From the NCBI GenBank assembly GCA_000004985.1, contig GG738845.1: 64,000 nt of DNA; one strand, 5' to 3'. Every line of letters starts with the position of its first letter. The stretch's first letter is position 1. Below the pieces are notes generated by a model that saw only the letters and a program-made list of their open reading frames with translations, did not search any database and had not been told where the DNA came from. The DNA is from Naegleria gruberi (Eukaryota). Both the position numbers and the translations under genes were made by a program. Positions 1 to 60,192 of the stretch are shown here, in pieces.

Positions 1-1
1 A

Positions 2-1231
2 TCACTGCAAACCAACAATGAAAATAATCAAGAGGTTGAAAAGAAAATATCAAAATTGATAGTCAAGTCTGTAGCAATTAGTGGAACAATTAATATGGTA
101 CTTGTTCTGGCACTCACATTCACTCTCTTTGATGTTATCACACAGGGATGGGCTATATTCGGTTGCTACCTGATTGGATTCTTGAATGGTGGAGTTTTAA
201 TTCAATTCTTATTCAGATATTATACTTTCCACAGATATCGTCCAGTTCAATACCTGGCTCTCAATTCTACAAGTTGGTATCACTATGTTTCAAGTGGATT
301 TTCTCATTCAGTTCTATCCCTCATTATTCCAATACTTTCCATTATTGTCAATATCATTCTTTGTAGTGCTCTTTCTACTTTCATGACAGGTGGTAGAGCA
401 TTTGGATCATTATTTGGGTTGACAATTTCTGGTATTGGCATGTCTGCAAATATAATTTTCTTCCTAGTACTGGATACTATTGTTCCAAATATGAATATTA
501 GACACTTGGATCAGAAAGAAACCAAATTGAATCCAACTCTTCACACTTACTTTTTAACAAATGGTGGTGTGAATAGAGGTTGTCTTTTAAGTATTACTCT
601 ATTTTTCTGTTTGAGTGGTTTGCAATTTTTGATGGTCAAGAGTGGCTTGGGTGTTGTAAACATGATAGATCTTTCTACCTTGATTGGCTTGATTGTTGGA
701 TTGGTACTGCCATTTATTATTGTTGGACTATTGTGGAGCACAATTAATTATTGCTCCATGCAAATGATTAATGAATGTAAAGGTCAATTGAGAGAAATTG
801 ATGGCCTGTTAGAAGGTAGACTAAATAGTAAACCTAATTATGAGAATATGAACCGATTACAGGGTGTGAAATCTATCAGAGGCGTCATTATGATTACTAG
901 TATCATTTTTTTAGCACCAACTTTGATAGGGTTAATTGGAAGACAAAAAATGTTGCTTGGATTTTTAGTGAGCTTTTCATTGGTTGGCTATTTTCTTTCA
1001 TTTATAATGTTAAACTTGGGCTTTTCTTGGAATTCTGTGAGAAGAATTGTGGAGCTAAAATATACTGAGCAGTCTCTTCATATGGATATCACAAGACATA
1101 ATACTGTCATTGCGGACACTGTTGGAATTTCATTAAGAGACTCTCTTGCTCCTTCCCTTTTATCTAGTGTTAGAGTTGTTACTCTAATTTGTCTAGTGAT
1201 AGCCCCAACATTGAAATTTCTATATCCATAA
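2..1231 (+). CDS. 5'-truncated multi-pass membrane protein; divergent H+-translocating pyrophosphatase (V-PPase) family, C-terminal half
   Basis: The frame is open from nt 2 with no in-frame ATG, and the ORF-track M at 56 is TTG, so the gene starts upstream of the window. It stops at TAA 1229-1231. At least 8 hydrophobic helices are visible. Three segments parallel remembered V-PPase motifs: IGLIVGLVLPF...GLLEGRLNSKPNY against IGLIVGAMLPY...GLMEGTAKPDY; LGFSWNSVRR against GGAWDNAKK; and HNTVIADTVGISLRDSLAPSL against [22 protein letters not shown]. Several conserved Asp/Lys positions are substituted. Confidence 0.5.
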   Translation, partial: SLQTNNENNQEVEKKISKLIVKSVAISGTINMVLVLALTFTLFDVITQGWAIFGCYLIGFLNGGVLIQFLFRYYTFHRYRPVQYLALNSTSWYHYVSSGFSHSVLSLIIPILSIIVNIILCSALSTFMTGGRAFGSLFGLTISGIGMSANIIFFLVLDTIVPNMNIRHLDQKETKLNPTLHTYFLTNGGVNRGCLLSITLFFCLSGLQFLMVKSGLGVVNMIDLSTLIGLIVGLVLPFIIVGLLWSTINYCSMQMINECKGQLREIDGLLEGRLNSKPNYENMNRLQGVKSIRGVIMITSIIFLAPTLIGLIGRQKMLLGFLVSFSLVGYFLSFIMLNLGFSWNSVRRIVELKYTEQSLHMDITRHNTVIADTVGISLRDSLAPSLLSSVRVVTLICLVIAPTLKFLYP

Positions 1232-1399
1232 GCGGATTACTTAAAGTTGATGATTTTTGGGATGGTTAATTTTATGGTTTCTAATCAAGCAGAAAAGGAA
1301 ATTCTTTCCATTCACATGTGAATGGATTATTGATGAAGAAGTAAAAAAAGGATTGCTTAGTAAAACCCCGCCATTTATAGTATGGAATTATTTTAAATA

Positions 1400-2312
1400 A
1401 TGGAAAAAACACCCAAGCAAGCATCTGTGGTGATGCTTATTAATGTCCCTAGAGGCAAACAAGCAAAAACGATTATCAAATCAATAGCAAAATATTTTGA
1501 TATCAAGGGAACAGTACAAAGAATTAATGTCTACCAAGTAAAAATTGTTTTTGAGAGCAATCACCATATCAATTTAGGTCTCTTTACTTCAGAATTATAT
1601 TTTAAATTTAAACAATTTAATCTTGTCGATTTTTACTTTGAAGAAAAAAAGTATTTAACATCATTCGATATTATCAAAGCAAACACTAATGTAGAATTAA
1701 GTAGTTATAGGAATAGGTTTTAATGATGACTCAAAAATTCCCAAAATAAGTGTTCAATTTTCTAAAGATGAGGCGATAACTTGGAATCTAGTTAAAGTAT
1801 TTGTTGAAAAATGTACACTACTGACTGCTATTTCTGAAAGTAGTGAAAACATATCAGAAAGTGAAAATCAAGAAATTGGAAAACTACAATTTTTAGACAG
1901 CTTAAAACAAGCATCTGAAATTATTGAAAAAAAGAAGTTGAAAAAAAGCAAGAAACATCATGAATTAGATGAACCTATTTCAGCAAAAAAGAATCTGGAA
2001 AGAATAGAGGGATCATTAATTATTGGTAATCTTGTGTTAAACAAAAGCAATCCAAAAAGTTGGAGCCCTGAGCAAGTAAAGGTGGTTTTATTAGATACTG
2101 AGTTGGGTGTTGGATTGGATGAAGAAGAGTTCCAAAACCTCAAGTTGAAAGGGCGTGACTTGTATTATATTGTTGATGCTTTGATTAGTTTTAATGGTGA
2201 TAAAGAAGCAAAGATTAGTCATGCCTTTTCACAGCCTCTTGGAATTGAATGTCCCAAGATTAAAAACATCATTGTTAGATGGGTATTTGATAATTTACTT
2301 GAATACAAATAG
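1400..2312 (+). CDS. hypothetical protein with a C-terminal SAM-like domain; two exons join(1400..1650,1718..2312)
   Basis: ORF 1400..1723 starts at ATG 1400. The downstream ORF (1716..2312) has no in-frame ATG, since its track M is TTG. A GTATTT donor at 1651 (phase 2) and an aatAG acceptor at 1716-1717 give a 67-nt AT-rich intron that joins the two frames without a stop. The C-terminus, WSPEQVKVVLLDTELGVGLDEEEFQNLKLKGRDLYYIVDAL, has a SAM-domain-like pattern. Confidence 0.4.
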
Positions 2313-2401
2313 AGATTGTTTGATTAAATGTTTCTCTATTTGTATTCAAGTAAATATTAATATTAAGACATATTTACCAAGAGTTTAAATTGTGGACAAG
2401 T

Positions 2402-4894
2402 TTATTCGAAGGACTTTTCAATAAACAAAATTTCCCTCGAAACATCATCATAGAATGTTTGTGTGCATACTTCATCCATATGACCATGCTTGTGCACTTT
2501 GAGTACTTGATGTTTGTTTGTTGGTTGAGTGAGATTTCGTTTTCTAATAATGGCCATTGTTTTTGCAATATTCCAAAGAGGACATTTAAAATCATCAATG
2601 CTTCCTGTAACATAAAGATTGGTGTTGAAATCATCTTTTCCTTGCATGATTAAATGATATGGAGAGTAAGACATCATGAGATGGGCAATTTCCTTGCTCT
2701 CTTTTGGACTTCCATATTCATCAAACTCGTGTTCTGTGAGTGGTAATGATTCATCCAACATGGTTGTCAAAACATCCAAGAATGGTACTTTCAATACAAG
2801 TGTATTGAAAATATTCTCATTTCTGTACATTAGAGAAGTGCTCATCATTAATAATCCACCTGCACTGATTCCACGTCCAATAAATAGTCCATTCCTAGTG
2901 AGTTTCTTCTCGTTGACCAAGTAATTGGTTACCGATTTCAAATCCTTCATACTATTTGATTTTAATTCTTTCACTCCTCCCTTGTACCATTGAATTCCAT
3001 TCTCCTTTCCACCTCTCACGTGAGCATAGACGAAAATGTATCCTCTCTTTAAAAAGTATTCTCTATAGGCATAGAATAGGGTATTATCAGCAATTTGTAA
3101 ATCTTCCATTAGGTGAGTTCCGTATGCTCCATACCCAATTAAAAAACACTTGCTATGGTCTGTAACAGTGGTCTTATCGTAAAGAATGGTAATAGGAATA
3201 TTATTCTCAATTACTATCGACTCGGTTACTAGATTATCATTTGCAATGATATGGGAATTAAAGAGAGTGGTAGCTGAATCGTCCTTCAAATCAAATTTTA
3301 CAAGGATTGGATTTCTGCGAATGAGGGAATGGCATTTGATATTATAAAATGAGCCATTATAATCTAAATTGGCTCCAATTTCAATATAATGAGTATTTTC
3401 TGGTATTGGCAAGTATGAAAATTCTCTTGTTGAAATGTTATACTTGAGTAATTTTGGAATACTGTTCTCTATCAAGTAAATGACGAGAAAATTGGAGAAA
3501 ATATCAATCTCATGAATTGTCTGGCCCTTCTTGTGGGTAAAAAGGACCGTCTTGTCATCTTCTCCTTTCAGAAGGTTCTCCCTAGAGACTGAGAAAATAT
3601 CCAAATCTGACTCAGGATCGTTGTTTGTGATAATATAGCATGTTTCAGTTTCTTTGTGGTATTCGAAAAAGTATTGAGATCCCTCCTTTCTTTTTTGAAT
3701 GCATTTTAACTCAAAATCCATATCATTTGTTGGAATCAATGCATGAACTTCTGTCGTTGTCTTGCTATTGATAGAAATGTATTTGAGGTCATTGTCTTTA
3801 GTTCGTCCAATATCTATAAAGAATTTATCATCCAACTCTTCCAACAAGAGTTTTTCTCTAAACGAGATGAATTCGCTATCTGAATATTTTCTATAGAATG
3901 CCTTATTAGTCCTATACTTTTCATCAGTGGTAGTATAGAGAAGATACAAGCTTCCATCTGGAAAAATATCGAGCTCTAAATTTGAAATATTAGGAATATC
4001 GTCCACAACATGTACCACCTTATTCTTGTGTTTAAGGACTATATAATTGGAATTGTTAATTTCTATTATGGTGGCAGAGTATTGTAAGCAGTGACTATTC
4101 TTATGGTTCACTAAATTATATGAGAGACTACCATCTTGTGTAATTCTCTTTACATTTTTCTTTACATAATGTTCCACATCTGAATAGATAGCCTGCTTGT
4201 TGTAAATAATTTCCATATTTCCATGAGGTATGGATGACATTAGTCTCGATCGAATAGAAACATTCTTTGTAAATAAAGATTCAAATGATTGACAAACTCC
4301 ATGATAAAATTCATCACAATAAATAGACTTTGTATCCAAATCTCCAATAGGAATTCTAGTAATATATTGATCAAAATTGAATGAAAAGTAAATATAAGTA
4401 TTGGTAGTCTCAATATCTGTCAAGAATAATTTATCATTAAATACATAAAACGAATTCTCCTTATTTTGTTGCATTTCCTTCAATTCTTTTTTAATTTTCT
4501 TTGTTTCCTTCTTGTATTGCTCAAAATATTCATCATAATAATCAATTTCCTGTTTTAAATAATTATCACATTCAACTATATCGGAAGATAATTTAAAGAA
4601 GGGATCTCGAATTTCAACATTGTGTACTCGATAGGTTGTTTCGAGATGTTCATCATTGAGGAAGGGAATTTTAGGCTTTTTCTTGAACAGAGAAAAATAA
4701 TTTCTATTCCATAATGATGAAGTTTTTGAATTGTTGTTGCTAATTTGATGATGATTAAATAGTGATGCTGATGATGGTTTGCAAAGTAGTTGTGGACATG
4801 ATTGAATATGTATTATCTGTAATTTCCGATTGACTGTAAGGAGCTTTTGTTTTAACATTTTTTTTTCAATCAATTTTAACTTGATTAAATTCAT
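2402..4894 (-). CDS. prolyl oligopeptidase family (S9A) serine peptidase, oligopeptidase B / protease II-like
   Basis: The 830-aa ORF has the region PKIPFLNDEHLETTYRVHNVEIRDPFFKL...YLKQEIDYYDEYF, which matches the oligopeptidase-B start (PxIP..L..HG..R.D.Y.WLRD....EVL.YL..EN.Y). The C-terminal alpha/beta hydrolase domain carries the nucleophile motif GRGISAGG (GxSxGG), a later Asp in GSIDDF and a His in HGHMDE. The first about 60 aa look like an extension or targeting peptide. Confidence 0.8.
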   Translation of the reverse strand: MNLIKLKLIEKKMLKQKLLTVNRKLQIIHIQSCPQLLCKPSSASLFNHHQISNNNSKTSSLWNRNYFSLFKKKPKIPFLNDEHLETTYRVHNVEIRDPFFKLSSDIVECDNYLKQEIDYYDEYFEQYKKETKKIKKELKEMQQNKENSFYVFNDKLFLTDIETTNTYIYFSFNFDQYITRIPIGDLDTKSIYCDEFYHGVCQSFESLFTKNVSIRSRLMSSIPHGNMEIIYNKQAIYSDVEHYVKKNVKRITQDGSLSYNLVNHKNSHCLQYSATIIEINNSNYIVLKHKNKVVHVVDDIPNISNLELDIFPDGSLYLLYTTTDEKYRTNKAFYRKYSDSEFISFREKLLLEELDDKFFIDIGRTKDNDLKYISINSKTTTEVHALIPTNDMDFELKCIQKRKEGSQYFFEYHKETETCYIITNNDPESDLDIFSVSRENLLKGEDDKTVLFTHKKGQTIHEIDIFSNFLVIYLIENSIPKLLKYNISTREFSYLPIPENTHYIEIGANLDYNGSFYNIKCHSLIRRNPILVKFDLKDDSATTLFNSHIIANDNLVTESIVIENNIPITILYDKTTVTDHSKCFLIGYGAYGTHLMEDLQIADNTLFYAYREYFLKRGYIFVYAHVRGGKENGIQWYKGGVKELKSNSMKDLKSVTNYLVNEKKLTRNGLFIGRGISAGGLLMMSTSLMYRNENIFNTLVLKVPFLDVLTTMLDESLPLTEHEFDEYGSPKESKEIAHLMMSYSPYHLIMQGKDDFNTNLYVTGSIDDFKCPLWNIAKTMAIIRKRNLTQPTNKHQVLKVHKHGHMDEVCTQTFYDDVSREILFIEKSFE

Positions 4895-19512: not shown

Positions 19513-19603
19513 GGTGCGATGGTCGAGTGGTCTAAGACGACACGTTTAGGAGTGATAAATTCCGTGTTCCGCAAGGGCGTGGGTTCAAATCCCACTCGCA
19601 TCA
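19513..19603 (+). tRNA. tRNA-Leu(UAG): tRNA-Leu (anticodon UAG) with 11-nt intron at the canonical 37/38 position
   Basis: The acceptor stem GGTGCGA pairs with TCGCATC, with one G-U pair. The D arm GTC-GAGTGGTCTAA-GAC carries the Leu-type A box TGGTCGAGTGG. The anticodon stem is ACACG/CGTGT with loop TT-TAG-G, interrupted by AGTGATAAATT (19551..19561). A long variable arm TCCGCAAGGGC marks it as type II, and the T arm GTGGGTTCAAATCCCAC carries the B box. Discriminator A is followed by a T6 run. Confidence 0.85.
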
Positions 19604-58983: not shown

Positions 58984-60192
58984 ATGAGCAACAACCAACA
59001 AGGAAATTACATTAATTTTCGGCCTTCATCATCAAATAATGGTGGCGGAGGTAGTTATGGTGGATCATCATCATCATCCTCCTCTAAGAAACAACACAAA
59101 TATCCAAAACGTCTGAGTCAAAATCAAGAAAAGACTAAATCATCATCAGGAAGTGAAAATATTTATCGACCACAACTTGCTGCACCAAGCAATGCACCAC
59201 TTCCATCAGCAGAAGAAATGTATAATAGTAGAACTAATCAAGATAGAGACACTAGAAACAAATCACCTATTAAACCGTTAAGAAATTTCAACAATTGGGT
59301 TAAAGGAGTATTGATCCATAAATACGTACCAACACAATCAACAGTTTTGGATATTAGTTGCGGAAAGGGAGGTGATTTATTTAAATATCACTTTCGTAAT
59401 ATCAAGAATTATGTTGGTGTAGATATTGCTCTTTCATCTCTTGTAGATTGTATTAACAGATATAATGAAAATTCAACACAATTTAAATTTCCAATGTCTC
59501 TAGTTCATGCTGATGTAGGAAGGGTATGTATTTTGATTTATTTATTATTTTGAACTTTTTAGAGATCAATTGAATCAGCTTTACCTAGAGGACTGCTCTT
59601 CGATGCTGTCAGTTGTCAATTTGCTGTTCACTACATGTTTGATGCTGAAGAGCATGCTAGAACTCTCTTGAGAAACGTTTCTGAGAGATTGAAAATTGGT
59701 GGTAAATTTATTGTCACAACGTCAGATGCCTATGTTCTTGTAAAAATGTTAAGGGCAGCTCAAGGCCTTACTCTTAAGAATGAGGTGTTCGAAGCAACTT
59801 TCCATTGCACTAGTGAAAAATCATTCCCTCAAACATTTGGTAATCGTTATGATTTCCAATTAGTAGATGCTGTTGATAGATGTGCTGAATATCTTGTTCC
59901 TCCAAAACATTTCATTGATTTGGCCAAGGAACATAATTTGTCCCTTGTTGAACATTTGAATTTCCATGATTTTTATCAAAAGTATGGCAGTAATCAAGAA
60001 ACTAAGGTAAATGTTAAACCAGAACTCAAATTGGAAGGTATGACAGAAGATCAATGGACTGCCATCTATTTGTACAGAGCTTTTGTTTTTGAAAAGATTG
60101 GAGATGACACCTCACTAGTTCAAGATTATCAATTTAATCAACCTTCAGGATATAGAAAACTTTCTGAATCTGACATTATCTCACTTAAATAA
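58984..60192 (+). CDS. RNMT: mRNA cap guanine-N7 methyltransferase (RNMT/Abd1); join(58984..59523,59563..60192)
   Basis: Exon 1 encodes NFNNWVKGVLIHKYVP..TVLDISCGKGGDLFKY (SAM motif I), VGVDIALSSLVDCINRY and HADVGR before a GTATGT donor at 59524. The 39-nt intron ends TTTTTAG. Exon 2 encodes LLFDAVSCQFAVHYMFDAEEHARTLLRNVSERLKIGGKFIVTTSDA...YDFQL, matching RNMT (FD.CSCQFVCHYSFES.EQA..MLRNA.ERL.PGGYFIGTTP). Confidence 0.82.

Follow-up and report, generated by a model that had tools for sequence, protein, structure and literature searches.

The 64,000-nucleotide stretch of Naegleria gruberi DNA analysed here (contig GG738845.1; hereafter, the window) begins within a gene, NAEGRDRAFT_61527, whose product carries the automatic UniProt name 'H(+)-exporting diphosphatase' (D2UYN0) and is called a 'predicted protein' by NCBI. 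The question raised by this locus is whether that product is an ion pump driven by pyrophosphate (PPi), as the automatic name implies, or a relative of such pumps that no longer performs their chemistry. The original prediction, made from the window, had proposed a divergent vacuolar-type H+-pyrophosphatase with substituted catalytic residues, which would be either an altered or dead pseudo-pump or a derived transporter. Judging from its sequence and predicted structure, the product is probably (at a rough probability of 0.7) not a PPi-driven pump but a selectively maintained, non-enzymatic membrane protein with the fold of the membrane pyrophosphatases (mPPases), that is, a 'pseudo-mPPase'. 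This reading rests on tool results concerning homology, residue losses, the predicted fold and an intact, conserved open reading frame (ORF).

In canonical mPPases, Asp and Lys residues clustered on transmembrane helices (TM) 5, 6, 11, 12, 15 and 16 bind Mg2-PPi, and H+ or Na+ passes through a gate formed by Arg, Asp, Lys and Glu (R-D-K-Glu). The fate of this cluster and of this gate in the Naegleria protein is therefore the centre of the argument, once the identity of the gene and its family have been settled.

The gene and its family

The part of the gene that lies in the window is as follows.

2..1231, + strand: 3′ part of NAEGRDRAFT_61527, an mPPase-family (PF03030) homologue, corresponding to residues 340-748 of XP_002683247.1 and roughly to TM9-TM16

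The open frame comprises 409 codons, runs off the 5′ edge of the window and ends with a TAA stop at 1229-1231. When 1.84 billion cluster representatives were searched exhaustively with HMMER, one protein of 748 aa (P0027) was 100% identical to all 409 window residues, and cluster look-up identified it as XP_002683247.1 (EFC50503.1, NAEGRDRAFT_61527, UniProt D2UYN0) of N. gruberi. The N-terminal half, which is absent from the window, was recovered from P0027 and from a near-identical contig (L001) of a metagenome assembly (ENA ERZ929261), which contains a copy of window 1-2840 at 97.7% DNA identity and also covers the part of the gene further upstream. The gene is thus cut by the window edge, as had been pointed out, and its full product is 748 aa long according to NCBI, or 772 aa if read from the single uninterrupted ORF of L001. 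In the NCBI model, translation starts from an ATG at L001 1355, which is followed by a GTATGT...ATAG intron (L001 1401-1558); the alternative start, an ATG at L001 1441 inside that intron, opens the continuous frame and adds a strongly hydrophobic N-terminal segment that NCBI splicing removes. This extra segment could be a signal anchor or a signal peptide. The mPPase core is the same under either 5′ end of the gene.

Membership of the pyrophosphatase family, which had been claimed for the C-terminal part, holds far beyond chance. The window fragment matches the Pfam profile PF03030 (H_PPase) with E=4.4e-42 and 145 bits over profile positions 260-645 of 645, the chains of the Vigna radiata H+-PPase (4a01/6afv/6afs) with E ~1e-29 over residues 356-754, and the Thermotoga Na+-PPase (4av3) with E 1.5e-26. 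The full product exceeds the family threshold of PF03030 by a wide range (249.6 bits against a cut-off of 29.7), spans profile positions 15-645 of 645, and matches the Vigna enzyme with E ~1e-44 over residues 153-754 and the Thermotoga maritima enzyme with E ~5e-39. Another transporter family can be set aside, because PF03030 is the sole significant Pfam match, with INSIG and CrgA following at E > 0.3. These comparisons support the placement of the product, by sequence, as a highly divergent member of the H+/Na+-pyrophosphatase family.

Its place within that family is less definite than the original prediction had it. No NCBIfam equivalog cut-off is reached, and every score is less than half its cut-off; the best is that of NF001960 (239 bits where 546 are required), and TIGR01104 V_PPase reaches 196 of the 652 bits needed. 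All equivalog cut-offs of the Na+-PPases (NF00195x/196x) are likewise missed, which distinguishes the product from that group. When homologues were grouped by their K+ signature and by the position of the gate Glu, no clear subfamily affinity emerged, scores to sequences with Ala at 12.46 being slightly higher. The label 'vacuolar-type' is therefore unproven. The term 'paralog', also used in the original prediction, presupposes a canonical copy in the same genome and is likewise provisional.

The predicted fold agrees with the assignment by sequence. When P0027 was modelled with AlphaFold2 (AF2) from a 50-sequence alignment, a succession of long helices emerged as expected, with a mean predicted local distance difference test score (pLDDT) of 83.2 and a predicted TM-score (pTM) of 0.87, and in this model the fold of ~16 transmembrane helices with an inner ring of TM5, 6, 11, 12, 15 and 16 can be recognized. 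Foldseek comparison with the PDB returned 36 matches at E <= 0.001, all of them mPPases (Vigna, Thermotoga, Pyrobaculum) with TM-scores of ~0.75-0.80, and the next family follows at E > 0.01 and a TM-score of ~0.15; the possibility that the similarity was to a different transporter family, raised in the original prediction, thus finds nothing in the structure comparison either. By both sequence and fold, the best match of known structure is the K+-dependent H+-PPase of V. radiata (4A01/6AFS; TC 3.A.10; TM-score 0.80), with which the product shares the order of the helices and the loop between TM13 and TM14 (M13-M14), GL(L/M)EG..KP(N/D)Y. The K+-dependent Na+-PPase of T. maritima (4AV3/5LZQ) is homologous over the full length and has the same fold (TM-score 0.75-0.79). 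Identity to the Vigna enzyme is nevertheless only ~22%.

Catalytic and gate residues

Individual residues were compared in an alignment of the product with 157 family members of 600-900 aa and a Vigna chain for numbering. The individual Mg/PPi ligands in Vigna numbering are taken here to be those published with the 4A01 structure (Lin et al. 2012). The nucleophile, the attacking water, is activated by the pair D6.43 and D16.39, and K12.50 serves as a latch (PMC5150537); the roles assigned to K5.58, K16.38, A/K12.46 and the semi-conserved Glu are those given in PMC5150537 and PMC9408878. The segments in the window that correspond to family motifs are listed below (Vr, V. radiata).

215..247, + strand: RYYTFHRYRPV, end of TM9, counterpart of (E/D)YYTS..Y.PV, with the acidic residue replaced by Arg
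470..514, + strand: LDTIVPNMNIRHLDQ, end of TM11 and shortened M11-M12 loop, with D11.50 (Vr D500) kept
551..580, + strand: FLTNGGVNRG, TM12, counterpart of GNTTAAxGKG, with Leu at N12.43 (N534), Gly at 12.46 and Arg at K12.50 (K541)
680-715, + strand: motif skeleton LIGLIVGLVLPF, present as quoted in the original prediction
803..841, + strand: GLLEGRLNSKPNY, cytoplasmic M13-M14 loop (canonical GLMEG..KPDY), well conserved
1016..1045, + strand: LGFSWNSVRR, TM15, counterpart of GGAWDNAKK, with D691N, N692S, K694R and K695R
1112..1159, + strand: ADTVGISLRDSLAPSL, TM16, counterpart of a canonical 16-letter motif, with D723 and D731 (D16.39) kept, D727I and K730R
1163..1180, + strand: SSVRVV, ionic-gate segment of TM16, with Arg at K16.50 (K742) and, just upstream, Leu at N16.46 (N738)

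The motif skeletons by which the family had first been recognized (LIGLIVGLVLPF, GLLEGRLNSKPNY and ADTVGISLRDSLAPSL) are all present, and the conserved M13-M14 loop shows that non-catalytic features of the family are retained. The two substitutions quoted at the same time are exact, GGAWDNAKK reading LGFSWNSVRR and a canonical 15-letter motif being replaced by ADTVGISLRDSLAPS, and alignment to characterised enzymes bears out that residues binding Mg-PPi are substituted. Further changes had not been listed. The GPxxDNAGGIAE loop that carries D507 (D11.57) between TM11 and TM12 is 7 residues shorter and without its Asp, so that the DNAGG motif is gone; the (S)xTGxAT (TGAAT) motif after TM9 is lost; and N534L, K541R and K742R are added to the list. 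The M11-M12 loop region is one of low confidence in the AF2 model.

Held in common with the Vigna enzyme are K250 (K5.58), D253 (D5.61), D294 (D6.50), D500, W690, E698, D723 (D16.31) and D731 (D16.39), and D269, R272, N273 and S298 (S6.54) are also kept. The changes in the N-terminal half are R242Q (R5.50), D257N (D5.65), K261Q, E268S, D270H, D279K (D6.35), D283E (D6.39) and D287G (D6.43), and the gate Glu is found at neither of its known positions, 6.53 being His and 6.57 (E301) Ala. Those in the C-terminal half are D527P, D530H, N534L, K541R (K12.50), D691N (D15.61), N692S, K694R (K15.64), K695R, D727I (D16.35), K730R (K16.38), N738L and K742R (K16.50), and the hydrophobic-gate residue L555 is Gly. 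It had been conceded in advance that the missing N-terminal half might supply intact PPi-binding motifs; that half is instead as degenerate as the C-terminal one, and of the two forms of pseudo-pump that had been proposed, the catalytically dead one is therefore the reading that the sequence best supports.

Considered by function, the losses affect each part of the machinery. In the set that coordinates Mg2+ and PPi, K250, D253 and D723 are kept, whereas D257N, D279K, D283E, N534L, D691N, K694R, D727I and K730R are substituted and the D507 loop is deleted. The nucleophile-activating pair is reduced to D16.39 (D731), its partner D6.43 (Vr D287) being Gly, and the K12.50 latch is Arg. The ionic gate R5.50-D6.50-K16.50 reads Gln, Asp, Arg and has no Glu at 6.53 or 6.57; E301A and the Gly at L555 are among the differences from the Vigna enzyme, and the His at 6.53 occupies the place of the gate Glu (E6.53) of the Thermotoga enzyme, in comparison with which the same Mg/PPi ligands are lost as in comparison with Vigna. 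The K+-dependence signature at 12.46 is Gly (A537G), which is neither the Ala of K+-dependent nor the Lys of K+-independent enzymes; among the 157 homologues, this position is Ala in 81 and Lys in 66.

Only 7/25 core catalytic and gate positions are kept, the lowest number among 159 sequences, 107 of which have all of them (25/25). Across the columns that are conserved to >=90%, the product retains 33/73 (45%), whereas none of the other sequences retains less than 59% and their median is 99%, and retention differs by class: 18/28 for the Gly and Pro framework, 8/17 for acidic residues and 1/7 for basic ones. The lost Lys is replaced by Arg in 5/6 cases, so that positive charge is preserved, and the lost acidic residues are now Asn, His, Lys, Gly, Ile, Pro or Ser. 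The residue calls are consistent among HMMER pairwise alignments, a 7-sequence MAFFT alignment and the 157-homologue alignment, and this agreement makes misalignment unlikely. Essential catalytic residues have thus been lost in an otherwise intact homologue, a hallmark of pseudoenzymes, and we infer from the sequence that the NAEGRDRAFT_61527 product neither hydrolyses PPi nor pumps ions at its expense.

A pump that still hydrolyses PPi with a remodelled site, as the automatic UniProt name would have it, could draw on the full-length mPPase fold, on the constraint under which the gene evolves (see below) and on the survival of K5.58, D5.61, D6.50, D11.50, D16.31 and D16.39, together with the Glu at D6.39 and the replacement of Lys by Arg, which keeps the charge. 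It is nevertheless highly improbable, because D6.43 is Gly, D5.65, D15.61 and D16.35 are Asn, Asn and Ile, the D11.57 loop is deleted, N12.43 is Leu and Glu is absent at 6.53 and 6.57; the positions lost are at least 90% invariant in the 157 homologues, the catalytic mechanism depends on them (PMC5150537), and every equivalog score falls below half its cut-off, as described above.

Strain comparison, relatives and genomic setting

Loss of catalytic residues would also be expected of a gene in decay, and this can be judged by comparison of the window with L001, which represents a second strain. The reading frame is open over ~750-770 codons in both strains. Over the 409 shared codons there are 8 differences, 6 of them synonymous and 2 non-synonymous, which gives a ratio of non-synonymous to synonymous change (pN/pS) of 0.10 and, for these 8 differences, a one-sided binomial p of 0.0026 against neutrality. 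The coding part differs at 8/1230 sites, compared with 29/1585 plus indels in the downstream flank (Fisher p=0.007). For its small sample, this comparison points to purifying selection on NAEGRDRAFT_61527, and the preferential retention of framework residues and positive charges points in the same direction. An intact ORF under purifying selection, the other mark of a pseudoenzyme, is thus indicated by evidence that is weak but consistent.

The gene could alternatively be a decaying relic, recently inactivated and without stops as yet, or simply functionless. In favour of such a relic, no orthologue was found in any other organism, divergence from the family is extreme, and the neighbouring downstream gene has a 1-bp frameshift relative to L001, so that lesions or errors of assembly do occur in this region. 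However, an identity of ~25% to all relatives requires a long history, and yet a frame of ~750-770 codons is open in two strains; the strain differences are mostly synonymous (6 to 2), the gene is more conserved than its flank, and Gly, Pro and positively charged residues are preferentially kept, unlike what neutral decay would leave. Decay is therefore a very improbable explanation, and a maintained, non-enzymatic protein is preferred.

Neither the exhaustive HMMER search nor a word-indexed full-length search brought up an orthologue in another species. In the former, only P0027 itself was recovered at E <= 1e-30 and the next closest sequence had ~27% identity; in the latter, the product was followed by matches of <=26% identity. 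The best matches are a mixture of unnamed metagenomic sequences, Anaeramoeba, Ancyromonas, and bacterial and Asgard 'sodium-translocating pyrophosphatases'. Unusual members of the family are already on record: divergent Na+-regulated H+-PPases form a described divergent branch of the mPPases, and the family tolerates unusual gate arrangements. The divergent enzymes of Luoto et al. 2015 (cited in PMC9408878) are reportedly active and are said to keep the catalytic Asp/Lys set. The Naegleria protein is without the full set.

Closer in character are certain metagenomic sequences that match PF03030 and have lost many catalytic residues, as the Naegleria protein has. Three of them (P0115, P0135 and P0050) keep 9/25, 10/25 and 13/25 of the core residues and a fourth, P0046, keeps 18/25; in all four D6.43 has become Gly, and none of them carries a name or has been characterised. 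P0115 (L003 8001-10079) lies in a bacterial neighbourhood with LolA, RodZ, a MiaB-like radical SAM gene, PgpA and ClpA/ClpS. Kinship of the Naegleria protein to P0115, P0135 or P0050 was rejected: they score 87-100 bits against it, compared with up to 166 bits for canonical enzymes, and P0115 is bacterial. Because the degenerate homologues are no closer than the canonical enzymes, the degenerations appear to be independent and to have occurred more than once.

A special case of the pseudo-mPPase would be a regulatory partner that pairs with a canonical mPPase of Naegleria in a heterodimer. Dimerization is obligatory in mPPases and the subunits act cooperatively, and many pseudoenzymes regulate active paralogues. 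The fold and the helices of the dimer interface are retained in the AF2 model. Cooperation between subunits of mPPases is discussed in PMC9408878. This variant needs a canonical mPPase in Naegleria, however, and no second Naegleria protein was present among the listed matches of the homologue searches, of which 20 from the exhaustive search were looked up by source, without a search dedicated to the N. gruberi genome; moreover, identities of 22-27% are too low for conservation of the interface to be judged. A heterodimeric partner is accordingly an unlikely form for the non-enzymatic protein to take.

The genomic setting is that of a native eukaryotic gene. The GC content of the window is ~32%, and GC and GC at third codon positions (GC3) of the NAEGRDRAFT_61527 fragment are in line with those of adjacent genes, which indicates a native gene. 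The neighbouring ORFs of the window are eukaryotic and encode a PX and F-box protein, a cytosolic carboxypeptidase, F-box/LRR proteins, a protein kinase, an RPGRIP1-type C2 domain, Hop2, a rhomboid, a PAS-adenylate cyclase and an intron-split cap methyltransferase. A prokaryotic origin or contamination can be dismissed in view of these neighbours, the matching GC and GC3, and the 100% match to the N. gruberi RefSeq entry.

Some other features of the window deserve mention. The gene immediately downstream (window 1400-2312, + strand; L001 3928-4839) has no Pfam match and is a continuous ORF of 303 aa in L001; in the window one additional G at ~1716 breaks it up into two ORFs (1400-1723 and 1938-2312), through either a frameshift peculiar to one strain or a mistake in the assembly. 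The sole tRNA gene of the window (19513-19603, + strand; 91 nt, 49.7 bits against Rfam) was left unassigned by ARAGORN, which reported a four-base anticodon, 'ttag'; an intron or a long variable arm is probably present. The mRNA cap guanine-N7 methyltransferase is encoded in two adjacent ORFs (58984-59553 and 59635-60192, + strand) that align to profile positions 16-126 and 155-314 and are presumably separated by an intron of ~80 bp. Two genes of the fatty-acid-hydroxylase family PF04116 (25896-26759 and 28554-29477, both + strand) lie ~1.8 kb apart with a HAD hydrolase on the opposite strand between them, and look like a local duplication.

A probable non-enzymatic protein with the mPPase fold

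Several points weigh against a maintained, non-enzymatic protein. K5.58, D5.61, D16.31 and D16.39 survive, Glu stands in place of D6.39, and an unprecedented catalytic arrangement built on such residues would formally be conceivable. The alignment that guided the AF2 model consists of canonical mPPases, so that the match in fold is partly inherited from it. The estimate of selection is drawn from no more than 8 differences, and the two strains compared are very close. Finally, the failure to find an orthologue means that there is no deep conservation to prove a function, and a gene that is young, evolves fast and is heading for loss would be conceivable.

If the protein is nevertheless maintained without catalysis, the pattern of retention suggests how it might be built. 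The scaffold is preserved in the Gly and Pro framework, in one half of the gate (D6.50-S6.54-R16.50) and in the D16.39-R12.50 pair, whereas the chemistry of the family has probably been lost with the change of D6.43 to Gly and of R5.50 to Gln, the absence of the gate Glu, and the replacement of most Mg-ligating Asp residues by neutral or basic ones or their deletion. The funnel leading to the active site, a strongly acidic Mg2+ cage in the canonical enzymes, is predicted to have become roughly neutral or basic, with K257, R555, R710, R711, R742, R754 and K294 and three His residues set against the eight acidic residues that are left. The likeliest replacement roles, as far as they can be inferred from these changes, would be the metal-independent binding of anions (phosphate, PPi or molecules resembling polyphosphate), uncoupled ion conduction, or regulation, and the most economical guess would be a non-catalytic membrane protein that binds anions without metal, conducts ions without coupling, or does both. 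A more specific proposal, which is possible but rather doubtful, is that the protein is a lineage-specific pseudo-mPPase and perhaps the sole PF03030 gene of Naegleria, in which the acidic Mg2+ cage has given way to an Arg-rich pocket that binds, senses or conducts anions (phosphate, PPi or polyphosphate) without metal and the ion path is partly kept; with bacterial proteins such as P0115, whose catalytic sites are degenerate too, non-catalytic proteins of the mPPase fold would then form a recurrent class that has so far gone undescribed.

No literature on NAEGRDRAFT_61527, on mPPases of Naegleria or on pseudo-mPPases was found in a search that left most subscription journals outside its scope; the gene is already public, where it has stood unremarked or under an automatic enzyme name. 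As a single orphan gene of one species, it is of moderate impact. D2UYN0 is probably misnamed as an 'H(+)-exporting diphosphatase', and when the PPi metabolism of Naegleria is reconstructed, NAEGRDRAFT_61527 should be left out of the proton-pumping PPases. The mPPases are treated as one uniform set of active cation pumps, and PMC9408878 describes them as lacking homologues among the ion pumps known so far. If the product is indeed maintained in a non-catalytic state, it would be the first pseudoenzyme of the mPPase fold described in the literature searched, and it would offer a natural experiment on the 16-helix scaffold and its ion path in the absence of hydrolysis.

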